DNA from: Escherichia coli
GTDB lineage: Bacteria > Pseudomonadota > Gammaproteobacteria > Enterobacterales > Enterobacteriaceae
Direction: 5' to 3' (one strand)
DNA: 64,000 nucleotides
Assembly (NCBI RefSeq): GCF_030013595.1
Contig: NZ_CP122768.1
Below the pieces are notes generated by a model, which made no database searches, was not told the DNA's origin, and saw nothing but the letters and a program-made list of their open reading frames with translations. Shown one piece after another: positions 21,726-32,186 of the stretch (position 1 is its first letter; the number at the start of each line of letters is the position of its first letter). The translations under genes were made by a program, and so were the position numbers.

Positions 21726-22722
21726 GCCCATCGTTTTTAGTGGCGCACAGCCCTCAGGTGAATTGACCATTGGTAACTACATGGGTGCGCTGCGTCAGTG
21801 GGTAAACATGCAGGATGACTACCATTGCATTTACTGTATCGTTGACCAACACGCGATCACCGTGCGCCAGGATGCACAGAAGCTGCGTAAAGCGACGCTG
21901 GATACGCTGGCCTTGTATCTGGCTTGTGGTATCGATCCTGAGAAAAGCACCATTTTTGTTCAGTCCCACGTGCCGGAACATGCACAGTTAGGCTGGGCAC
22001 TGAACTGCTATACCTACTTCGGCGAACTGAGCCGCATGACGCAGTTTAAAGATAAATCTGCGCGTTATGCCGAGAACATCAACGCTGGTCTGTTTGACTA
22101 TCCGGTGCTGATGGCTGCGGACATCCTGCTGTATCAAACTAATCTGGTGCCGGTGGGTGAAGACCAGAAACAGCACCTGGAACTGAGCCGCGATATCGCC
22201 CAGCGTTTCAACGCGCTGTATGGCGATATCTTTAAGGTGCCAGAGCCGTTTATTCCGAAATCTGGCGCGCGCGTAATGTCGCTGCTGGAGCCGACCAAGA
22301 AGATGTCCAAGTCTGACGATAATCGCAATAACGTTATCGGCCTGCTGGAAGATCCGAAATCGGTAGTGAAGAAAATCAAACGCGCGGTCACTGACTCCGA
22401 CGAGCCGCCGGTAGTTCGCTACGATGTGCAGAATAAAGCGGGCGTTTCCAACCTGCTGGATATCCTTTCTGCGGTAACGGGCCAGAGCATCCCGGAACTG
22501 GAAAAACAGTTCGAAGGCAAGATGTATGGTCATCTGAAAGGCGAAGTGGCTGATGCCGTTTCCGGTATGCTGACTGAATTGCAGGAACGCTATCACCGTT
22601 TCCGCAATGACGAAGCCTTCCTGCAACAGGTGATGAAAGATGGCGCTGAAAAAGCCAGCGCACACGCTTCCCGTACGCTAAAAGCGGTGTACGAAGCGAT
22701 TGGTTTTGTGGCGAAGCCGTAA
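21718..22722 (+). CDS. trpS: tryptophanyl-tRNA synthetase
   Basis: 334 aa with HIGH-type (TIGNYMG) and KMSKS motifs; overlaps gph by 8 nt. Confidence 0.96.
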
Positions 22723-22738
22723 TTTAACATTAATGCCA

Positions 22739-22763
22739 AAAACCGGGGAAACCCGGTTTTTTT
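22739..22763 (+). terminator. trpS Rho-independent terminator
   Basis: Hairpin aaccgggg-aaa-cccggtt followed by a T run. Confidence 0.8.
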
Positions 22764-22832
22764 ATCCTCATTTGCAATAATCCGAAAAAATGTGAAGCGT
22801 CTCGCCGTTTCCACATCTCGCAGTTGCCACTT

Positions 22833-22852
22833 ATCTTCATTTTTATGAAGAT
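22833..22852. promoter_or_regulatory. perfect inverted repeat ATCTTCAT-N4-ATGAAGAT about 30 bp upstream of yhfZ (candidate operator)
   Basis: 8-bp perfect arms read directly from the sequence; followed by TAAATATTCA (22855..22864). Confidence 0.35.
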
Positions 22853-22881
22853 ATAAATATTCACTTTATTGAAAATTTACT

Positions 22882-23787
22882 ATGCGTCGAACGTTTATCA
22901 AAAAAGAAGGCGTCGTCATCACGACACTGGCCCGTTATTTGTTGGGTGAAAAGTGCGGTAATCGACTGAAAACCATAGATGAACTGGCAACTGAATGCCG
23001 TTCATCCGTTGGCCTGACGCAGGCCGCGTTGAAAACGCTGGAATCAAGCGGAGCGATACGGATAGAACGCCGTGGGCGTAATGGCAGTTATCTGGTGGAA
23101 ATGGATAACAAAGCATTGCTGAGTCATGTGGATATCAACAATGTGGTGTGCGCGATGCCCTTGCCCTATACCCGTTTGTACGAAGGCCTGGCGAGCGGAT
23201 TGAAAGCCCAATTTGATGGCATTCCTTTTTACTATGCGCACATGCGCGGCGCGGATATTCGCGTGGAGTGTCTGCTTAATGGCGTGTATGACATGGCGGT
23301 GGTTTCCCGACTGGCGGCGGAAAGTTATCTCACGCAAAAAGGGTTATGCCTCGCGCTGGAGCTGGGGCCGCACACCTACGTTGGCGAGCACCAGTTGATT
23401 TGCCGTAAAGGCGAGTCCGCAAACGTGAAGCGCGTGGGGCTGGATAACCGTTCGGCGGATCAGAAAATCATGACCGATGTCTTTTTTGGCGATAGTGATG
23501 TGGAACGTGTCGATCTCTCTTATCACGAGAGTTTACAACGCATTGTTAAAGGCGATGTCGATGCGGTTATCTGGAACGTGGTGGCGGAAAACGAACTGAC
23601 CATGCTGGGATTAGAAGCGACGCCGCTCACAGACGATCCGCGATTTTTACAGGCCACCGAAGCCGTGGTTTTGACGCGAGTCGATGATTACCCGATGCAA
23701 CAATTGCTGCGTGCAGTTGTTGATAAACAGGCCCTGCTTGCCCATCAACAACGAGTGGTCTGTGGGGAACAGGAACCCAGTTATTAA
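22882..23787 (+). CDS. yhfZ: putative transcriptional regulator YhfZ (N-terminal winged-helix-like region)
   Basis: 301 aa; first gene of the yhf cluster as in E. coli. Confidence 0.85.
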   Translation: MRRTFIKKEGVVITTLARYLLGEKCGNRLKTIDELATECRSSVGLTQAALKTLESSGAIRIERRGRNGSYLVEMDNKALLSHVDINNVVCAMPLPYTRLYEGLASGLKAQFDGIPFYYAHMRGADIRVECLLNGVYDMAVVSRLAAESYLTQKGLCLALELGPHTYVGEHQLICRKGESANVKRVGLDNRSADQKIMTDVFFGDSDVERVDLSYHESLQRIVKGDVDAVIWNVVAENELTMLGLEATPLTDDPRFLQATEAVVLTRVDDYPMQQLLRAVVDKQALLAHQQRVVCGEQEPSY

Positions 23788-23803
23788 ACCAAAGGCATCT
23801 GAA

Positions 23804-24166
23804 ATGGAAACCAGACTCAACCTGCTTTGCGATGCAGGCGTTATTGATAAGGACATCTGCAAAGGCATGATGCAGGTCGTCAACGTACTGGAAACAGAGT
23901 GTCATCTACCGGTGCGCAGCGAGCAAGGAATGATGGCGATGACACATATGGCGAGCGCACTGATGCGCAGTCGCCGTGGTGAAGAAATAGAGCCGCTGGA
24001 CGCCGAATTGCTGGCAGAACTGGCGCAATCCAGCCACTGGCAAGCCGTTGTGCAATTGCATCAGGTGTTGTTGAAGGAATTTACACTGGAAGTTAACCCG
24101 TGTGAAGAAGGCTATTTGCTGGCCAACCTTTATGGATTATGGATGGCTGCTAACGAAGAGGTTTGA
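23804..24166 (+). CDS. yhfY: YhfY, small PRD-like protein, 120 aa
   Basis: ATG at 23804 (METRLNLLCDAGVIDKD...); ORF track extends upstream into yhfZ. Confidence 0.8.
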   Translation: METRLNLLCDAGVIDKDICKGMMQVVNVLETECHLPVRSEQGMMAMTHMASALMRSRRGEEIEPLDAELLAELAQSSHWQAVVQLHQVLLKEFTLEVNPCEEGYLLANLYGLWMAANEEV

Positions 24167-24196
24167 AGCTCCCGACAAATCCACGTCGCACAACCT

Positions 24197-24220
24197 AAAT
24201 ATTCAAAAAAATGAATATTT
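24197..24220. promoter_or_regulatory. perfect inverted repeat AAATATTCA-N6-TGAATATTT 30 bp upstream of yhfX (candidate operator)
   Basis: 9-bp perfect arms; a third ATTCA half-site follows at 24222..24226. Confidence 0.4.
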
Positions 24221-24249
24221 AATTCAAGGAACAGAAACGAGGCAACAAG

Positions 24250-25413
24250 ATGTTTGTAGAAGCATTGAAACGCCAGAACCCGGCGCTAATTTCCGCCGCA
24301 CTAAGCTTGTGGCAAAAGGGCAAGATCGCCCCGGACAGCTGGGTGATCGACGTGGATCAGATACTGGAAAACGGTAAGCGGCTGATTGAGACGGCGCGGC
24401 TTTACGGCATTGAACTGTATCTGATGACCAAGCAGTTTGGTCGTAATCCGTGGCTGGCGGAAAAACTGCTGCCATTAGGCTACAGCGGCATTGTGGCGGT
24501 GGATTACAAAGAGGCGCGAGTCATGCGCCGCGCCGGTTTGCCGGTGGCGCATCAGGGGCATCTGGTACAAATCCCTTGTCATCAGGTTGCTGACGCCGTT
24601 GCACAGGGCACCGACGTCATCACCGTGTTTACTCTCGACAAAGCGCGGGAAGTTTCTGCGGCAGCGGTGAAGGCCGGACGTGTCCAGTCTGTGCTGCTAA
24701 AAGTTTATAGCGACGCTGATTTTCTTTATCCGGGGCAGGAGAGCGGTTTTGCCCTCCAGGTGTTGCCGGATATTGTCGCCGAAATCCAGAATCTGCCGGG
24801 GCTACATTTGGCGGGACTTACCCATTTCCCTTGCCTGCTTTGGGATGAGGCTGCCAGGAAAGTTTTGCCGACACCGAATCTTCACACGCTGGTACAAGCA
24901 CGGGATCAACTGGCGAAATCTGGTATTGCGATTGAGCAACTGAATGCGCCTTCAGCGACCAGTTGCACTTCGCTGCCGATGCTGGCGCAATACGGTGTGA
25001 CTCATGCCGAACCCGGTCATGCGCTGACGGGCACTATTCCGGCAAACCAGCAGGGCGATCAGCCTGAACGTATCGCGATGCTTTGGTTAAGTGAAATTTC
25101 CCACCATTTCCGTGGCGACAGCTACTGCTACGGCGGCGGTTACTACCGTCGTGGTCACGCGCAACATGCGCTGGTGTTTACGCCAGAAAATCAAAAGATT
25201 ACTGAAACCAATCTCAAAACTGTGGATGACAGCAGTATCGACTACACCCTGCCGCTGGCAGGCGAGTTTCCGGTAAGCAGTGCAGTAGTGCTCTGTTTTC
25301 GCACGCAGATTTTTGTCACCCGTAGCGATGTGGTGCTGGTGTCTGGTATTCATCGTGGCGAACCGGAAATCGTCGGTCGTTATGACAGCCTCGGCAACCC
25401 TCTGGAGGCGTAA
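24250..25413 (+). CDS. yhfX: YhfX, alanine-racemase-fold (fold-type III) PLP enzyme, substrate unknown
   Basis: 387 aa; N-terminal TIM-barrel-like region with candidate PLP lysine (LYLMTKQFG). Confidence 0.85.
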   Translation: MFVEALKRQNPALISAALSLWQKGKIAPDSWVIDVDQILENGKRLIETARLYGIELYLMTKQFGRNPWLAEKLLPLGYSGIVAVDYKEARVMRRAGLPVAHQGHLVQIPCHQVADAVAQGTDVITVFTLDKAREVSAAAVKAGRVQSVLLKVYSDADFLYPGQESGFALQVLPDIVAEIQNLPGLHLAGLTHFPCLLWDEAARKVLPTPNLHTLVQARDQLAKSGIAIEQLNAPSATSCTSLPMLAQYGVTHAEPGHALTGTIPANQQGDQPERIAMLWLSEISHHFRGDSYCYGGGYYRRGHAQHALVFTPENQKITETNLKTVDDSSIDYTLPLAGEFPVSSAVVLCFRTQIFVTRSDVVLVSGIHRGEPEIVGRYDSLGNPLEA

Positions 25414-26640
25414 ATGGCGCGATTTGTGGTGTTAGTGATTGATAGCTTTGGCGTAGGGGCAATGAAAGATGTCACGTTGGTGCGTCCGCAGGATGCCGGG
25501 GCGAATACCTGTGGTCACATCCTGAGCCAGTTGCCGCATTTGCAGCTATCAGCGCTGGAGAAGCTGGGGCTAATCAACGCATTGGGTTATGCACCAGGTG
25601 ATATGCAACCGTCAGATTCCGCAACCTGGGGGGTGGCAGAACTGCAACATGAAGGTGGCGATACCTTTATGGGGCATCAGGAAATTTTAGGCACGCGTCC
25701 GTTACCACCGCTGCGGATGCCTTTTCGCGATGTGATTGACCGTGTTGAGCAGGCATTAGTTTCCGCTGGCTGGCAGGTTGCGCGCCGTGGCGAAGAGTTA
25801 CAGTTTCTGTGGGTCAATCAGGCGGTTGCGATTGGCGATAATCTCGAGGCGGATTTAGGCCAGGTCTATAACATCACCGCCAATCTCTCTGTGATCTCCT
25901 TTGACGACGCAATCAAAATTGGTCGTATCGTGCGTGAGCAGGTACAGGTCGGTCGGGTCATTACATTTGGTGGCCTGTTAGCGGACAGCCAGCGCATTCT
26001 CGATGCCGCAGAAAGTAAAGAAGGGCGATTTATTGGTATCAACGCGCCGCGTTCTGGCGCTTATGACAACGGCTTCCAGGTCGTGCATATGGGCTACGGC
26101 GTCGATGAGAAAGTACAAGTGCCGCAAAAACTGTATGAAGCGGGCGTGCCAACCGTGCTGGTGGGTAAGGTGGCGGATATCGTCAGCAATCCTTATGGCG
26201 TGAGCTGGCAAAACCTGGTGGATAGCCAGCGGATTATGGATATCACCCTCGACGAATTTAACACGCATCCGACGGCGTTTATTTGCACCAATATCCAGGA
26301 AACCGACCTCGCTGGTCACGCGGAAGACGTCGCACGTTATGCCGAACGTTTGCAGGTCGTTGACCGTAACCTTGCCCGGCTTATTGAGGCGATGCAGCCA
26401 GATGATTGCCTGGTCGTGATGGCGGATCACGGTAACGATCCGACCATTGGTCACAGCCACCATACCCGCGAAGTGGTGCCAGTGCTGGTTTATCAGCAAG
26501 GGATGGTCGCTACGCAGCTCGGTGTGCGCACCACGCTTTCTGATGTGGGGGCTACCGTATGTGAAGTTTTCCGCGCGCCACCGCCACAAAATGGTCGCTC
26601 TTTTCTTTCCTCCCTCCGGTTTGCAGGAGACACCCTATGA
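25414..26640 (+). CDS. yhfW: YhfW, phosphopentomutase-like metalloenzyme
   Basis: 408 aa; start abuts the yhfX stop. Confidence 0.85.
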
Positions 26641-27515
26641 GTTTTGATCCGACGGGTTACACCCTCGCCCATGAGCATCTGCATATTGATCTCTCCGGCT
26701 TTAAAAACAACGTGGACTGCCGCCTTGATCAGTATGCGTTCATTTGCCAGGAGATGAACGACCTGATGGCCCGGGGCGTGCGTAATGTGATTGAGATGAC
26801 CAACCGTTACATGGGGCGCAATGCGCAATTTATGCTCGATGTAATGCACGCGACGGGGATCAACGTGGTGGCCTGCACCGGTTATTACCAGGACGCGTTT
26901 TTCCCGGAACATGTGGCGACCCGCAGCGTGCAGGAACTGGCGCAGGAGATGATCGATGAAATTGAACAGGGTATCGATGGCACGGAACTGAAAGCCGGGA
27001 TCATCGCGGAGATCGGCTCCAGCGAAGGGAAGATTACGCCGCTGGAAGAGAAGGTATTTATTGCCGCCGCGCTGGCACATAACCAGACCGGACGCCCGAT
27101 CTCCACGCATACGTCGTTCAGCACGATGGGGCTGGAGCAACTGGCTCTGTTGCAAGCCCACGGGGTTGATCTTTCGCGCGTCACCGTTGGTCACTGCGAT
27201 CTGAAAGACAACCTCGACAACATTTTGAAGATGATCGATCTCGGCGCGTATGTGCAGTTCGACACCATCGGCAAGAACAGTTACTACCCGGACGAAAAGC
27301 GCATTGCGATGCTCCACGCGCTACGTGACCGTGGTTTGCTGAACCGCGTCATGCTGTCGATGGATATTACGCGCCGCTCCCATTTAAAAGCCAACGGTGG
27401 TTATGGCTATGACTATTTATTGACCACCTTTATTCCGCAATTGCGCCAGTCAGGATTCAGTCAGGCCGATGTGGATGTGATGTTACGTGAAACTCCCTCT
27501 CAATTTTTCCAATAA
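26637..27515 (+). CDS. php: phosphotriesterase-homology protein (amidohydrolase superfamily, binuclear metal centre)
   Basis: 292 aa; N-terminal HxH metal motif ([12 protein letters not shown]); ATGA overlap with yhfW. Confidence 0.9.
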
Positions 27516-27525
27516 GGACAGACTC

Positions 27526-27879
27526 ATGAAAAAGATTGGTGTTGCAGGCTTACAGCGTGAGCAGATTAAAAAAACCATTGAAGCGACGGCTCCTGGCTGT
27601 TTTGAAGTTTTCATTCACAACGACATGGAAGCGGCAATGAAAGTGAAATCCGGGCAACTGGATTACTACATCGGCGCGTGTAATACCGGTGCGGGCGCGG
27701 CATTGTCGATTGCCATCGCGGTGATTGGCTATAATAAAAGTTGCACCATTGCCAAGCCGGGCATTAAAGCGAAAGACGAACATATCGCCAAAATGATCGC
27801 CGAAGGGAAAGTGGCGTTTGGGCTTTCCGTTGAGCACGTCGAACATGCGATTCCGATGCTGATTAACCATCTGAAATAA
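27526..27879 (+). CDS. yhfU: YhfU, small protein of unknown function, 117 aa
   Basis: ATG at 27526 with AAGGA Shine-Dalgarno; ORF track extends upstream into php. Confidence 0.8.
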   Translation: MKKIGVAGLQREQIKKTIEATAPGCFEVFIHNDMEAAMKVKSGQLDYYIGACNTGAGAALSIAIAVIGYNKSCTIAKPGIKAKDEHIAKMIAEGKVAFGLSVEHVEHAIPMLINHLK

Positions 27880-27890
27880 AAGGCACGACT

Positions 27891-29195
27891 ATGGATCTGT
27901 ATATTCAGATTATCGTGGTGGCGTGCCTGACGGGTATGACATCGCTTCTGGCGCATCGCTCGGCGGCCGTTTTTCATGACGGTATCCGCCCGATCCTGCC
28001 GCAACTGATTGAAGGCTATATGAACCGTCGCGAGGCGGGGAGTATCGCTTTTGGTCTGAGCATTGGTTTTGTGGCCTCGGTGGGGATCTCGTTTACCCTG
28101 AAAACCGGGCTGCTCAACGCATGGTTACTCTTTCTTCCTACCGATATCCTCGGCGTACTGGCGATAAACAGCCTGATGGCGTTTGGTCTTGGCGCTATCT
28201 GGGGCGTGTTGATCCTTACTTGCCTGTTGCCGGTAAACCAGCTGCTGACCGCGCTACCGGTGGATGTATTAGGTAGCCTGGGGGAATTAAGCTCACCGGT
28301 GGTTTCAGCTTTTGCACTGTTCCCGCTGGTGGCGATTTTCTACCAGTTTGGCTGGAAGCAAAGTCTGATCGCCGCCGTGGTGGTACTGATGACCCGTGTG
28401 GTGGTAGTGCGCTATTTCCCGCATCTCAATCCGGAATCCATCGAAATCTTTATTGGCATGGTGATGCTGCTGGGGATCGCGATAACTCACGACCTGCGTC
28501 ATCGTGATGAAAATGATATTGATGCCAGCGGGCTTTCGGTGTTTGAAGAACGCACGTCGCGGATTATCAAAAACTTACCGTATATCGCCATCGTGGGAGC
28601 GCTGATTGCCGCCGTTGCCAGCATGAAGATTTTTGCTGGCAGTGAAGTGTCGATCTTCACACTGGAGAAAGCATATTCCGCAGGCGTAACGCCGGAACAA
28701 TCACAAACGCTGATTAACCAGGCAGCTCTGGCGGAATTTATGCGCGGGCTGGGTTTTGTACCGTTGATTGCCACCACCGCGTTAGCCACTGGTGTGTATG
28801 CAGTTGCGGGCTTTACCTTTGTTTATGCGGTGGGCTATCTCTCGCCGAATCCGATGGTTGCAGCGGTATTAGGCGCAGTGGTTATTTCGGCGGAAGTCTT
28901 GCTGCTTCGTTCGATCGGCAAATGGCTGGGACGCTACCCGTCGGTACGTAATGCGTCGGATAACATCCGTAACGCCATGAATATGCTGATGGAAGTGGCG
29001 CTGCTGGTCGGTTCGATTTTCGCAGCAATTAAGATGGCGGGTTATACCGGATTCTCTATCGCAGTTGCCATTTACTTCCTCAACGAATCCCTGGGCCGTC
29101 CGGTACAGAAAATGGCGGCACCAGTCGTAGCCGTAATGATCACCGGTATTCTGCTGAATGTTCTTTACTGGTTTGGCTTGTTCGTTCCGGCTTAA
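27891..29195 (+). CDS. yhfT: YhfT, polytopic inner-membrane protein (putative transporter)
   Basis: 434 aa, hydrophobic throughout with about 11-12 predicted helices. Confidence 0.85.
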   Translation: MDLYIQIIVVACLTGMTSLLAHRSAAVFHDGIRPILPQLIEGYMNRREAGSIAFGLSIGFVASVGISFTLKTGLLNAWLLFLPTDILGVLAINSLMAFGLGAIWGVLILTCLLPVNQLLTALPVDVLGSLGELSSPVVSAFALFPLVAIFYQFGWKQSLIAAVVVLMTRVVVVRYFPHLNPESIEIFIGMVMLLGIAITHDLRHRDENDIDASGLSVFEERTSRIIKNLPYIAIVGALIAAVASMKIFAGSEVSIFTLEKAYSAGVTPEQSQTLINQAALAEFMRGLGFVPLIATTALATGVYAVAGFTFVYAVGYLSPNPMVAAVLGAVVISAEVLLLRSIGKWLGRYPSVRNASDNIRNAMNMLMEVALLVGSIFAAIKMAGYTGFSIAVAIYFLNESLGRPVQKMAAPVVAVMITGILLNVLYWFGLFVPA

Positions 29196-29206
29196 GGAAG
29201 GCACCT

Positions 29207-30292
29207 ATGAAGACGTTTCCTCTGCAAAGCCTGACGCTTATTGAGGCGCAGCAAAAGCAGTTTGCGCTGGTGGACAGCATTTGTCGTCATTTTCCCGGGA
29301 GCGAGTTTCTTGCTGGCGGTGATTTAGGCTTAACGCCGGGGCTAAACCAGCCGCGCATTACCCAGCGTGTGGAACAGGTGCTGGCTGATGCATTTCACGC
29401 ACAGGCCGCGGCGCTGGTGCAGGGCGCGGGTACTGGCGCGATTCGTGCGGCGTTGGCGGCTTTGCTCAAACCGGGGCAGCGTCTTCTGGTGCATGACGCG
29501 CCTGTTTACCCGACGACTCAGGTCATTATTGAGCAGATGGGGCTGACGCTTATCACTGCTGATTTCAATGACCTGTTGGCACTGAAGCAGGTTGTCGACG
29601 AGCAACAACCAGATGCCGCGCTGGTGCAGCATACGCGCCAGCAGCCGCAGGACGGGTACATTCTGGCAGATGTGCTGGCAACGTTGCGCTCGGCTGGCGT
29701 TCCTGCATTAACCGATGACAACTATGCGGTGATGAAAGTGGCGCGAATTGGCTGCGAATGCGGGGCAAATGTCTCGACTTTTTCCTGCTTCAAGCTGTTT
29801 GGGCCGGAGGGTGTTGGCGCGGTGGTAGGTGATGCCGATGTTATTAGTCGGATTCGCGCCACGCTCTATTCCGGCGGCAGCCAGATTCAGGGCGCTCAGG
29901 CGCTGGAAGTCTTGCGTGGGCTGGTGTTTGCGCCAGTGATGCACGCGGTGCAGGCGGGGGTATCTGAACGGTTGCTGGCTTTGCTTAACGGCGGCGCGGT
30001 GGCGGAAGTGAAAAGCGCCGTCATTGCCAATGCACAGTCGAAGGTATTGATTGTGGAGTTTCATCAGCCGATTGCCGTCAGAGTGCTGGAAGAGGCGCAG
30101 AAACTCGGTGCCTTGCCTTACCCGGTTGGTGCAGAGTCGAAATATGAAATCCCGCCGCTCTTTTATCGACTTTCCGGAACGTTTCGCCAGGCGAATCCGC
30201 AGTTAGAACATTGCGCGATTCGCATTAACCCAAATCGCAGCGGTGAAGAGACGGTGCTGCGGATTTTGCGTGAGAGTATTGCCAGTATTTAA
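29207..30292 (+). CDS. yhfS: YhfS, putative fold-type I PLP-dependent enzyme
   Basis: 361 aa; candidate PLP-lysine region STFSCFKLFG. Confidence 0.85.
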   Translation: MKTFPLQSLTLIEAQQKQFALVDSICRHFPGSEFLAGGDLGLTPGLNQPRITQRVEQVLADAFHAQAAALVQGAGTGAIRAALAALLKPGQRLLVHDAPVYPTTQVIIEQMGLTLITADFNDLLALKQVVDEQQPDAALVQHTRQQPQDGYILADVLATLRSAGVPALTDDNYAVMKVARIGCECGANVSTFSCFKLFGPEGVGAVVGDADVISRIRATLYSGGSQIQGAQALEVLRGLVFAPVMHAVQAGVSERLLALLNGGAVAEVKSAVIANAQSKVLIVEFHQPIAVRVLEEAQKLGALPYPVGAESKYEIPPLFYRLSGTFRQANPQLEHCAIRINPNRSGEETVLRILRESIASI

Positions 30293-30333
30293 TCTTGTGC
30301 ATGATGTTTTCGAAAAGAATGCAGAAATAAATA

Positions 30334-30357
30334 CGCCCTCGGGTAACCCCGAGGGCG
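30334..30357. terminator. hairpin between yhfS and yhfL (likely yhfL terminator, bidirectional)
   Basis: 10-bp perfect stem cgccctcggg/cccgagggcg with 4-nt loop; T-rich on the minus-strand downstream side. Confidence 0.65.
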
Positions 30358-30398
30358 TCAGGCAATTAAACCGGTGTTAGCCGATTTCTGTCAGAGAC

Positions 30399-30566
30399 TT
30401 ACTGTGCAGTAGGACCGCAACCGCCAATGATTTTAGAAATAGAAATTGCCGGGTGCAGCAGGTAGTCGTAAGAGCAGTTCTTATCACGGTTTTCAATATG
30501 ACCAGTACATGCAGTTAACGTAGCCAGTACTGCGCCTACCAGTGCAACTTTAATAAATTTGTTCAT
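30399..30566 (-). CDS. yhfL: small lipoprotein YhfL, 55 aa (below ORF-track threshold)
   Basis: Hand translation MNKFIKVALVGAVLATLTACTGHIENRDKNCSYDYLLHPAISISKIIGGCGPTAQ*; lipobox LTAC. Confidence 0.85.
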   Translation of the reverse strand: MNKFIKVALVGAVLATLTACTGHIENRDKNCSYDYLLHPAISISKIIGGCGPTAQ

Positions 30567-30812
30567 TTACATTCCCTATGTATTATATATTAATTAATAT
30601 TCATTGATTATATGAATATAAGCAGACTGCTCATTAAGAACGATACAGGAATATTTAATTAGCGTCAGTGAGTGAATGGCTTAATTTTGTAAGTCGCTGT
30701 AACGGTGAATATAACCCATTAGCAGATAATATTTATTAAGGGGTTATGTTTTATTTGCTGAATATATAAAAAGAGTCATTAAGAAGGCCAGAATTCTCTG
30801 GCCCGGGTTACA

Positions 30813-32186
30813 TTAATGGTTGGAGAACCAGTTCAGTTTATCGCGCAGGCCAACAACACGACCAATAATAATTAGCGATGGACTGTTCATTTGCTGCGCC
30901 AGTTCGCCCAGCTGTGTGAGCGTACCGTCAATCACGCGCTGCGTGACTGCTGTTCCGTTTTCGACAATTGCCACCGGCATTTCGCCAGGCATACCGTGTT
31001 CAATCAGCTTTTGCTGAATAGTCGCAGCCTGATTCAGCCCCATATAGAACACCAGCGTTTGTTTTTCTGCCGCCAGGTTTTCCCAGTCCAGCTCGCCACC
31101 AGTTTTTAAGTGTCCGGTAATTAAGCGCACGCTCTGGGCATAATCGCGATGCGTGAGCGGAATACCCGAATAGGCAGAGCAACCAGAAGCTGCGGTAATA
31201 CCCGGAACCACCGAGAACGGAATACCCGCGTTGCACAGTGTTTCCAGCTCTTCTCCGCCACGCCCGAAAATAAACGGATCGCCGCCTTTCAGACGCACCA
31301 CGCGTTTACCTTTTTGCGCTTCCCGCAGCAAGATCTGGTTAATCTCTTCCTGCGGTACGCAGTGGTATCCCGCGCGTTTGCCGACGAAAACGCGATCAGC
31401 ATCGCGGCGTACCAGATTCATAATATCGTCAGAAACCAGACGGTCGTAGACCACCACATCAGCCTGCTGAATTTGTTGCAGACCTTTCAGTGTCAGCAGT
31501 CCGGCATCGCCCGGACCTGCACCAACCAGCACCACTTCACCGCGATGGTCGAGCGGTTCGTTGATTAACTGTTCGGTGGTTTCAGTAATGGCTTTCTGAT
31601 CGTTGTTGGCCAGCGACTGCGCCAGGCGGTCGTTAACGAACAATTTCTCCCAGAAACGGCGACGCTCACCCATCGTGGCGAACTGTTGTTTCACTCGCCC
31701 GCGTAATTGCCCGGCGTATTTCGCTACCTGGCCCAGATGTAACGGCAGCTGTGATTCGAGTTTTTCGCGCAACAGGCGCGCCAGAACCGGAGAGGTGCCG
31801 CCAGAGGATACCGCGACCATGAGCGGTGAGCGGTCAATAATCGACGGCATAATAAAGCTGGCGGCTTTCGGCGCATCGACCACGTTACAGAAGATGCGAC
31901 GAGCTTCAGCGGCTTCACTGACGCGCTGGTTAAGCGCGTCATCATCCGTCGCAGCAATTGCCAGCCAGCAGGTGTCGAGAAGGCTTTCATCAAATGGCCC
32001 TTCGACGAGGGTTAACATGCCTGCATCTGCCCATGCGGTGAACTGTGGAATAAACGCTAATGCATTCACCGTTAAGCGAGCGCCTGCGTCTAACAGCAAC
32101 CTTGCTTTGCGTTCCGCGACATCACCACCGCCGACAATCAGACAGTCGCGATCGCGTAATTGACAAAATATAGGCAAATGATCCAC
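30813..32186 (-). CDS. cysG: siroheme synthase (multifunctional)
   Basis: 457 aa; N-terminal NAD-binding GGGDVA region and C-terminal methyltransferase domain. Confidence 0.95.

Follow-up and report, generated by a model that had tools for sequence, protein, structure and literature searches.

What do the eight genes of the yhfZ-yhfS cluster do for Escherichia coli? This question was addressed with a 64,000-nucleotide stretch of an E. coli genome (assembly GCF_030013595.1, contig NZ_CP122768.1), the whole of which is called the window below, and in which yhfZ, yhfY, yhfX, yhfW, php, yhfU, yhfT and yhfS follow one another on the same strand. All eight proteins are 'putative' or 'uncharacterized' in the RefSeq annotation of strain K-12, and the names given to the exact proteins by NCBI, UniRef, JGI and ENA are family names only, such as 'YhfT family protein', 'YhfX family PLP-dependent enzyme' (PLP, pyridoxal phosphate) and 'Uncharacterized protein YhfU'. 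Structures are available for four of them (the C-terminal domain of YhfZ, YhfX, Php and YhfS), all deposited as hypothetical or uncharacterised. YhfZ was termed a 'putative transcription factor' in a 2025 paper, and yhfW was listed among uncharacterised genes in a paper of January 2026. No substrate assignment was found in the K-12 annotation, in the exact-protein names or in the literature up to 2026, in which the genes appeared in gene lists and screens only, other matches being unrelated Bacillus subtilis or Staphylococcus aureus genes that bear identical names. An earlier interpretation made from the letters of the window (the sequence-only reading) had stated that no substrate is assigned, and the statement holds across all three sources; a published biochemical assignment, which it had named as refuting evidence, was looked for and none was found. 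The yhf cluster is a catalogued 'known unknown', so that its detection is not new and the present analysis sharpens an open problem.

The evidence given below suggests that the cluster is substrate-inducible and serves to take up and degrade a compound that contains nitrogen, derives from a carbohydrate and would be handled as a phosphate ester, a reading in which we place about even confidence. The most likely substrate class appears to be that of amino sugars or amino-sugar acids in N-acylated or lactonised form, our confidence in any specific substrate being much lower. Like the sequence-only reading, we infer a catabolic role and a nitrogen-containing substrate from the sequence. That reading had left the choice between an amino-acid- and an amino-sugar-derived compound; the latter option is favoured by the new evidence, whereas the side of the pathway that involves phospho-sugars and the phosphotransferase system (PTS) had gone unrecognised.

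Conservation of the gene set

A genome scan with a YhfX alignment, at one genome per species (100,044 species), found YhfX relatives encoded at 414 places; the gene contents given here were counted for the 80 closest of these 414 loci. All eight genes were present in 31 loci, which came from the Enterobacterales (Escherichia, Citrobacter, Klebsiella spallanzanii, Trabulsiella, Buttiauxella, Cedecea, Serratia, Providencia and Limnobaculum) and, outside this order, from Clostridia/Oscillospiraceae, Leptotrichia and Sebaldella. Another 27 loci, all from Photorhabdus and Xenorhabdus (L038-L066), lacked yhfW only, and 16 loci from Vibrionaceae (L070-L090) lacked yhfS only and followed a different gene order (Z-Y-php-U-T-X-W). 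Other patterns were observed in six loci of various taxa, mostly where the cluster was cut by a contig end. The genes for YhfZ, YhfY, YhfX, Php, YhfU and YhfT formed the set that was never missing. A core consisting of genes for a PTS regulation domain (PRD) protein, a DUF2620 protein, YhfT, a phosphotriesterase (PTE) family protein, a YhfX-like protein and a metalloenzyme was also found around YhfT homologues of 27-51% identity from metagenomes. The genome-context comparison suggested by the sequence-only reading showed that the same gene set recurs in other phyla, and that it is conserved as a unit in Enterobacterales, Vibrionaceae, Clostridia/Oscillospiraceae and Fusobacteriota.

Genes within or beside the related clusters point to a compound that is carbohydrate-derived, handled as a phosphate ester in a PTS-linked pathway, and endowed with an amide or ester bond and an amine. 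The link with PTS is indicated by the PRD protein, which is present with an invariant histidine in almost every cluster, by genes for HPr in the distant cluster L010 and for an HPr-Enzyme I fusion in L099, by an Enzyme I gene adjoining L098, and by a gene for a PTS cellobiose-type EIIC in L004. The link with carbohydrates and amino sugars is indicated by CUT1 sugar ABC systems in L010, L088 and L096 (the L096 binding protein being NgcE-like), by a Cof-type sugar phosphatase gene and GH1 genes in L011, and by an SIS enzyme in L099 with NagB-II/GlmS as its best match (2.5e-46); the part of the L099 cluster held by its contig contains no PTE gene. A divergent amidase-signature gene is inserted in the clostridial and fusobacterial clusters and a gene for a PBP4B-like lipoprotein in those of Oscillospiraceae, suggesting an amide or ester bond in the substrate. 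An actinobacterial variant carries a shikimate-dehydrogenase-like gene. In Photobacterium, a second pair of yhfZ-like and php-like genes was observed about 7 kb downstream of the main cluster (L070, 19201-21118; L074, 19245-21049). A gene of 771 codons stands directly after yhfW in this genus, and inspection of its product by eye showed an N-terminal signal-like stretch and a C-terminal motif recalling chitin-binding domains.

Within E. coli, at least 80% of the yhf stretch was covered in 5059 of 5426 complete genomes. The stretch is 100% identical over 9 kb to that of two pig isolates, and 95-99% identical to that of almost all other complete E. coli genomes. All eight genes are of the same length as in K-12 and contain no internal stop. 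Compared with K-12, the ratio of nonsynonymous to synonymous substitution rates (dN/dS) was 0-0.18 across the eight genes (dS, 0.10-0.29), and YhfU and YhfT are 100% and 99.5% identical, respectively, despite a dS of 0.1-0.19. The eight genes are under purifying selection, and the intact open reading frames together with the low dN/dS indicate that they are working genes and not remnants. The cluster, with its verified domains and its recurrence in other phyla, goes well beyond what chance would produce.

The order, direction and positions of the eight genes, which the sequence-only reading had given exactly, agree with both the list of open reading frames and the RefSeq annotation. The gaps measured 16 bp between yhfZ and yhfY, 83 bp between yhfY and yhfX, 0 bp between yhfX and yhfW, -4 bp between yhfW and php (an ATGA overlap), 10 bp between php and yhfU, and 11 bp each between yhfU and yhfT and between yhfT and yhfS. 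From yhfX to yhfS the spacing is thus as had been claimed (0-11 bp or ATGA overlaps), and this tight packing fits the single transcription unit proposed for these six genes, which are also grouped together in an older operon table. A search within the cluster found no convincing internal terminator, and an Rfam scan gave no match at E <= 0.1, with no riboswitch, attenuator or small RNA found. An open reading frame of 160 codons at 23684-24166 was rejected as the form of yhfY, since it is an upstream extension overlapping yhfZ and the annotated form of 120 codons agrees with the homologues.

Predicted enzymes and the YhfU-YhfT pair

All of the gene identities and folds proposed for YhfZ, YhfY (as a weak PRD), YhfX, YhfW, Php (with its H12-x-H14 motif) and YhfS were borne out by domain searches. 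YhfX is a fold-type-III (alanine-racemase-fold) PLP enzyme that carries the Pfam domains Ala_racemase_N (E = 2.7e-22) and YhfX-like_C. The barrel of this fold and the PLP lysine are both present, the latter (Lys61) being invariant within an invariant M-x-K-Q-x-G-R-x-P motif; the structure (PDB 4KBX) was deposited as 'uncharacterized'. The family profile was about equidistant from alanine racemase (E = 3.7e-5), PLP-binding protein and D-threonine aldolase (5e-3), and similarity to racemases stayed below the equivalog level (25 bits against a cutoff of 480 for the Orr model). YhfS is a fold-type-I PLP enzyme with Pfam matches to Aminotran_1_2, Aminotran_5 and Cys_Met_Meta_PP, a family-specific C-terminal domain (YhfS-like_C) and Lys196 within S-x-x-K; its structure (PDB 4J8L) was likewise deposited as 'uncharacterized'. 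Its nearest characterised relatives, by weak similarity, are enzymes of the methionine gamma-lyase type. Neither YhfX nor YhfS was placed in a characterised reaction class by the profile searches.

YhfW is a phosphopentomutase-like metalloenzyme of the alkaline-phosphatase superfamily, and matched the YhfW-specific NCBIfam model PRK12383 at 731 bits. Alignment to the phosphopentomutase of Bacillus cereus showed that D10, the T84 nucleophile (in GGDTFMGH), D338/H339 and the HTRE motif are kept, and hence that the superfamily core is retained with its threonine nucleophile and manganese ligands. Both of the DeoB equivalog cutoffs were missed (142 bits against 341 for TIGR01696, and 180 against 256 for PRK05362), indicating a paralogue with its own specificity and not DeoB itself. 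YhfW protein has been recovered in DNA-affinity proteomics of E. coli (PMC7730263). Php belongs to the PTE family of the amidohydrolase superfamily (NCBIfam PRK09875, 650 bits against a cutoff of 486) and matched PDB entries 1BF6 (E = 2e-193) and 4LEF (4e-194). The set of TIM-barrel binuclear-metal ligands is complete (H12, H14, the bridging glutamate E125, H158, H186 and D243). Scores far below the equivalog cutoffs were obtained with the phospho-furanose lactonase model NF045706 (97 bits against 630; E = 1.2e-27) and with the organophosphate hydrolase model NF041153 (101 bits against 500).

YhfU, a DUF2620 protein, had been described from sequence alone as a small unknown protein. It has indeed no assigned function, but it is not featureless: it shows the RpiB/LacAB fold with a Cys-x-Thr loop, in which C52-x-T54-G55-x-G57 aligns with the catalytic loop C-G-T-G-x-G of RpiB. 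Across 34 sequences C52 is invariant and T54 nearly so (replaced by serine in some). Five of the seven sub-threshold matches of the YhfU profile to PDB were RpiB-like proteins, and the match to Pfam LacAB_rpiB was not significant (E = 0.16). Compared with the RpiB/LacAB isomerases, YhfU is about 30 residues shorter, and its gene is firmly tied to that of a membrane protein. In YhfW the retained nucleophile and metal ligands of phosphopentomutase, and in YhfU the RpiB fold and Cys-x-Thr loop, point to the handling of phosphate.

The membrane protein in question is YhfT (PF10797), a polytopic inner-membrane protein that was confidently modelled and belongs to a rare family without a solved structural relative; it is presumed to be a permease. 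The yhfU gene lies almost always directly 5' of yhfT, with a median gap of 10 bp over 78 loci, and the pair occurs alone in one lineage (L008/L009). In addition, yhfU and yhfT switch jointly between two deep subtypes (31-34% identity for YhfT) on an otherwise orthologous backbone of enzyme genes. Between Citrobacter sp. R56 and E. coli, for instance, the enzymes are 80-91% identical, in contrast to 38% for YhfU and 31% for YhfT. We read these data as indicating that YhfU and YhfT are one functional unit. Exchange of this cassette was observed even inside the genera Citrobacter and Buttiauxella (L022, L031, L035 and L038-L066 versus L016-L037), and in Enterobacterales the YhfU and YhfT of subtype B resemble those of subtype A less than they resemble the versions of clostridia and Leptotrichia (about 50%).

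The most distant YhfT relative found (L015, 10001-11978; 26% identity) has no other yhf gene nearby and is encoded directly upstream of a gene for 5'-methylthioadenosine/S-adenosylhomocysteine (MTA/SAH) nucleosidase, an adjacency that was seen on two independent contigs. It is thus conceivable that further ribose-linked compounds are transported within the wider YhfT family. The linkage, which concerns a single, very distant YhfT relative without other yhf genes nearby, was given no weight for the cluster of E. coli.

Candidate operators and regulatory proteins

Three operator-like palindromes, designated O1, O2 and O3, were found in the cluster, the first two upstream of yhfZ and the third in the spacer between yhfY and yhfX (Table 1). 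O3 is the sole match without mismatch to ATATTCA-N6-TGAATAT in the window, and the top three matches of the window, O1 to O3, all fall inside the two yhf regulatory spacers. At three mismatches or fewer, 10 matches were counted against 1.95 expected, a number that no shuffle reached. The palindromes hold their positions in Escherichia, Serratia, Providencia, Photorhabdus and Xenorhabdus, in spacers that otherwise diverge. O2 ends 5 bp 5' of the start codon of yhfZ. A CRP-like TGTGA-N6-TCNCC element sits about 44 bp upstream of the first palindrome, and in 18 of 19 loci from different genera an element of this type (TGTGA or CGTGA, 6 nt, TCNC(C/T)) occupied the corresponding position, the flanks again diverging. 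From this pattern we infer that the palindromes are YhfZ operators and the TGTGA element a CRP site. With candidate operators both upstream of yhfZ and between yhfY and yhfX, the genes are probably controlled as two units, yhfZY and yhfXW-php-yhfUTS. A consensus scan detected no plus-strand sigma-70 promoter 5' of yhfZ or yhfX.

Table 1. Positions of the yhf genes and of putative control elements in the window.
Feature	Position	Strand	Remarks
trpS intrinsic terminator	22740-22763	+	AAACCGGG-GAAA-CCCGGTTT, then T run; kept in Escherichia and Citrobacter loci
CRP-like site, putative	22791-22806	+	TGTGA-N6-TCGCC; upstream of yhfZ
Operator-like palindrome O1	22833-22852	+	ATCTTCA-N6-TGAAGAT; upstream of yhfZ; kept across Enterobacterales genera
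Operator-like palindrome O2	22857-22876	+	ATATTCA-N6-TGAAAAT; one mismatch; conserved across genera
yhfZ	22882-23787	+	Open reading frame list and RefSeq annotation of 100%-identical E. coli chromosome
yhfY	23804-24166	+	Open reading frame list and RefSeq annotation
Operator-like palindrome O3	24199-24218	+	ATATTCA-AAAAAA-TGAATAT; perfect; yhfY-yhfX spacer
yhfX	24250-25413	+	Open reading frame list and RefSeq annotation
yhfW	25414-26640	+	Open reading frame list and RefSeq annotation
php	26637-27515	+	Open reading frame list and RefSeq annotation
yhfU	27526-27879	+	Open reading frame list and RefSeq annotation
yhfT	27891-29195	+	Open reading frame list and RefSeq annotation
yhfS	29207-30292	+	Open reading frame list and RefSeq annotation
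GC-rich hairpin, 11 bp	30333-30358	.	Between convergent yhfS and yhfL

The protein presumed to act at O1 to O3 as a repressor is YhfZ. It scored 372 bits with the GntR-family YhfZ model of NCBIfam (NF041241; cutoff, 260) and carries two Pfam domains, a winged-helix N-terminal domain (HTH_41) and a C-terminal domain of the ligand-binding type (YhfZ_C), the arrangement of GntR-type regulators. The C-terminal domain has been solved (PDB 2OZZ, deposited as 'hypothetical protein'). Homologues of yhfZ adjoin the cluster in distant phyla as well, that of L099 also matching PF00392.

YhfY, a protein of 120 residues, is probably a free-standing single PRD, matched by TIGR03582 at E = 3e-6 (27.6 bits against a cutoff of 69). 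No output domain for binding RNA or DNA is attached to it, the PRD taking up its whole length. Its counterparts in the distant clusters matched PF00874 at E <= 1e-5, and all YhfY homologues have in common the motif T-H-x-A-x-A-x-x-R with an invariant histidine (His48 in E. coli). One database source names the exact protein 'PRD domain protein, AHA_3910 family'.

The cluster is bounded by the trpS terminator, which isolates it from trpS transcription, and by a strong hairpin in common with the convergent yhfL. A T run follows this hairpin on the minus strand only, and it is a terminator for yhfL, with the yhf transcript likely ending there as well. An attenuator based on a bacterial interspersed mosaic element (BIME) has been reported 5' of yhfZ in K-12 (PMC2965389). 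It was judged inapplicable here, since the spacer (22723-22881) is 159 bp long with a plain trpS terminator, compared with 289 bp in K-12; the BIME repeat before yhfZ seems to be missing in this lineage. For the region 22000-31000 of the window, identity of at least 99% was found in 2 of 5427 matching E. coli records (both UK pig isolates) and identity of 95-99% in 5381; the small number of records at 99% or above indicates that the window is from an uncommon lineage.

The genes of the fructoselysine operon, frlABCDR, located between yhfL and yhfS in K-12, are absent from this strain, in which the junction (30293-30812) reads yhfS-yhfL-cysG. A contiguous junction without frl was found in 2107 of 5426 complete E. 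coli genomes, with a breakpoint near 30323, and frl is a common presence/absence polymorphism in E. coli. A functional link between the yhf cluster and the frl operon was therefore rejected, since this strain and some 39% of E. coli genomes lack frl. The dS of yhfS relative to K-12 (0.29) is the highest of the cluster, the other seven genes giving 0.10-0.19, and this, together with the position beside the frl insertion/deletion breakpoint, suggests recombination at this edge. A very AT-rich spacer of 246 bp (30567-30812) separates the small lipoprotein gene yhfL (30399-30566, minus strand) from the end of cysG.

Proposed working and rival explanations

The following scheme is proposed, in which the gene order, folds, conserved residues and sites, and linkages are those observed and every activity is a prediction. 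YhfZ bound at the three palindromes would repress yhfZY and yhfXW-php-yhfUTS until its C-terminal domain binds an inducer. The CRP-like site, and YhfY through HPr-dependent phosphorylation of His48, would tie expression to carbon status via HPr and Enzyme I. The compound would be imported by YhfT together with its cytoplasmic Cys-loop partner YhfU, possibly with phosphorylation, YhfU serving either as an EIIB-like phosphocarrier or as a permease-coupled isomerase. Php might then open a lactone or remove an N-acyl group, exposing the amine or carboxylate needed by the PLP enzymes, and YhfW might move the phosphate between hydroxyls. Finally YhfX, joined by YhfS where it is present, may racemise, eliminate or transaminate at the amino carbon to give a keto-acid phosphate for central metabolism.

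Several known systems resemble this scheme in part, and the yhf cluster represents a variant form of the well-known catabolic operon under repressor control. In the Salmonella dgaABCDEF system, D-glucosaminate is imported and phosphorylated by a PTS, and the resulting 6-phosphate loses its amino group through a PLP enzyme, which gives a 2-keto-3-deoxy sugar-acid phosphate; this system differs in having a mannose-family EIIABCD, a sigma-54 activator, a SelA-like PLP enzyme and its own aldolase, and YhfS matched the related MJ0158 family at E = 3e-4 only. In the ascorbate ula pathway and those of the COG1735 phospho-sugar lactonases (Lmo2620, Mycoplasma), PTS uptake yields a phosphorylated lactone that is opened by a metal-dependent lactonase, although the fold of UlaG is different and these pathways are without PLP enzymes. 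Php is in the same PTE family as the phospho-furanose lactonases (NF045706). Clusters of the EF_0829/AHA_3910 type likewise bring together a free-standing PRD protein and a small Cys protein rich in glycine with uncharacterised membrane proteins, an amidohydrolase and a PLP enzyme of fold type I. YhfY matches their model TIGR03582, but these clusters differ from yhf in their membrane protein and enzyme families and are uncharacterised too. The frl operon is similar in being a catabolic operon in which a sugar-amino-acid conjugate is handled as a 6-phosphate, and one distant yhf-type cluster has an SIS-family enzyme analogous to FrlB; on the other hand, frl and yhf have no genes in common and their adjacency is not conserved.

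The pairing of Php and YhfX has a precedent at superfamily level in the 'ong' pathway of Pseudoalteromonas for N-acetyl-glucosaminic acid (GlcNAc1A) from oxidised chitin, in which the amidohydrolase-superfamily deacetylase OngB is followed by the fold-type-III PLP deaminase OngC (PMC9537276). This pathway is repressor-controlled and was described as 'akin to D-amino-acid catabolism' (PMC9537276). Unlike the yhf scheme, its substrate is unphosphorylated before deamination, its components include a transporter of the SSS type, a RidA protein and a 2-keto-3-deoxygluconate (KDG) kinase, and it is without a PTE-family enzyme, mutase, PRD protein or RpiB-fold protein. Mammalian PTER, a member of the PTE family, is an amidohydrolase of N-acetyltaurine and N-acetyl-beta-alanine (PMC11374699; PMC13311154), showing that this family is able to hydrolyse N-acyl amides of small amino compounds. 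Its residues H26, H28 and E169 are listed as metal-interacting (PMC11374699) and stand beside H12, H14 and E125 of Php, the comparison covering metal residues only. PTER differs as a eukaryotic stand-alone enzyme with a helical insertion commonly absent in bacterial PTEs. These two precedents indicate that Php could be either a lactonase or an N-deacylase, both activities exposing a group for YhfX and YhfS. Three parts of the cluster are unusual, namely a transporter family without a solved relative, an RpiB-fold partner, and a PRD separated from the DNA-binding protein.

A number of observations weigh against the proposed scheme. The absence of yhfW from every Photorhabdus and Xenorhabdus cluster, and of yhfS from every cluster of Vibrionaceae, indicates that neither is essential to the core chemistry. 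Lactonases and organophosphate hydrolases are as near to Php as any amidase is. The residues used by RpiB for phosphate binding and ring opening are an N-terminal Asp-His, a His-Asn pair and a C-terminal Arg helix; YhfU has no conserved histidine or arginine at these positions and ends before the Arg helix. The joint replacement of yhfU and yhfT could be caused by simple linkage. As to the PTS, no membrane EIIC of a recognised family was found among YhfT, YhfU and YhfY, and no EIIA domain in the cluster of the window or in about 100 related loci. The Pfam PRD match of E. coli YhfY is weak (E = 0.009), its second usual PRD histidine is replaced by asparagine, and PRD control could be the sole purpose of the HPr and Enzyme I genes beside three distant clusters. 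The cluster contains no kinase, recognisable EIIA, aldolase or dehydrogenase, and hence the points of entry into and exit from the pathway are missing.

A stronger form of the proposed scheme, which we consider distinctly doubtful, is that YhfY, YhfU and YhfT form a previously unrecognised PTS branch delivering a phosphorylated amino-sugar-type compound to Php, YhfW, YhfX and YhfS. The PRD of YhfY would take phosphate from HPr at His48, as a regulator or as the missing EIIA-like carrier, with the RpiB-fold YhfU (Cys52) at the position of EIIB and YhfT, whose fold has not been seen in solved structures, at that of EIIC.

Among the rival explanations, the one that survives best, though unlikely, is that the cluster degrades a non-sugar derivative of an amino acid, such as an amino-acid lactone or lactam, an N-acyl-D-amino acid or an aminosulfonate. 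Php would open a ring or deacylate, YhfX would be a racemase, YhfS an aminotransferase or lyase, and YhfT with YhfU an ordinary secondary transporter. This agrees with the occurrence in the PTE family of both lactonases (PDB matches) and PTER, with racemases and Cys/Met gamma-lyases being the nearest characterised relatives of YhfX and YhfS, with the amidase-signature genes inserted in some clusters, and with Php and YhfX being the only enzymes that are never missing. It leaves unexplained, however, why a catalytically intact phosphomutase, an RpiB-fold protein and a PRD protein are encoded together, why HPr and Enzyme I genes accompany distant clusters, and why sugar ABC systems, a sugar phosphatase and an enzyme resembling GlmS/NagB-II are repeatedly linked.

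Salvage of a pentose- or nucleoside-derived compound with an amino-acid moiety appears quite improbable. YhfW would then be a true pentose-phosphate mutase and YhfU an RpiB-type isomerase leading to the pentose-phosphate pathway, as might be expected from the full-length alignment of YhfW with phosphopentomutase, all catalytic residues being kept, from the RpiB fold and Cys-x-Thr loop of YhfU, and from the match of Php to the phospho-furanose lactonase (1e-27). Yet no true yhf-type cluster contains a nucleoside phosphorylase or hydrolase, 27 of the 80 loci lack yhfW, and YhfU is without the phosphate-binding residues of RpiB. The MTA/SAH nucleosidase gene beside the most distant YhfT homologue would also agree with such salvage, but it concerns one relative of 26% identity that stands apart from other yhf genes.

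Recycling of a cell-wall fragment, in which a piece of peptidoglycan or teichoic acid bears D-amino acids on a phospho-sugar or phospho-polyol and YhfX handles the D-amino acid, is very improbable. The alanine-racemase fold of YhfX would suit this role, as would the PBP4B-like lipoprotein (class C beta-lactamase fold) of the Oscillospiraceae clusters and the amidase-signature genes of the clostridial and fusobacterial ones; pbp4B (yfeW) of E. coli adjoins the N-acetylmuramic acid PTS operon murQP. These accessory genes are found in a handful of loci only, however, known recycling enzymes (the MurQ, AmpD, NagZ and LdcA types) are unlinked, and the Enterobacterales clusters are without an exported hydrolase. 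That the cluster is a decaying, non-functional remnant, literally cryptic, is close to refuted: decades of work on K-12 have yielded neither a phenotype nor a substrate and no plus-strand consensus sigma-70 promoter was found near yhfZ or yhfX, but the eight intact reading frames with their low dN/dS and near-identical YhfU and YhfT, the presence of the cluster in most E. coli genomes, its conservation across phyla with conserved operators, and the recovery of YhfW protein (PMC7730263) all stand against it.

The proposed scheme offers several experimental handles, namely three candidate operators, a candidate repressor with a solved ligand-binding domain, a shortlist of compound classes, and single residues that can be mutated (YhfY H48, YhfU C52, YhfX K61 and YhfW T84). 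Within the 'y-ome' of E. coli, the yhf genes rank with those that are better conserved, and related loci occur in insect pathogens, marine vibrios and gut anaerobes. If the scheme is true, the cluster would define a nutrient that is met in hosts or on invertebrate or chitinous material. It would include a family of transporters not described so far, partnered by a protein in which the sugar-phosphate-isomerase fold has been put to another use, and a PRD domain wired in a new way to a separate DNA-binding protein.

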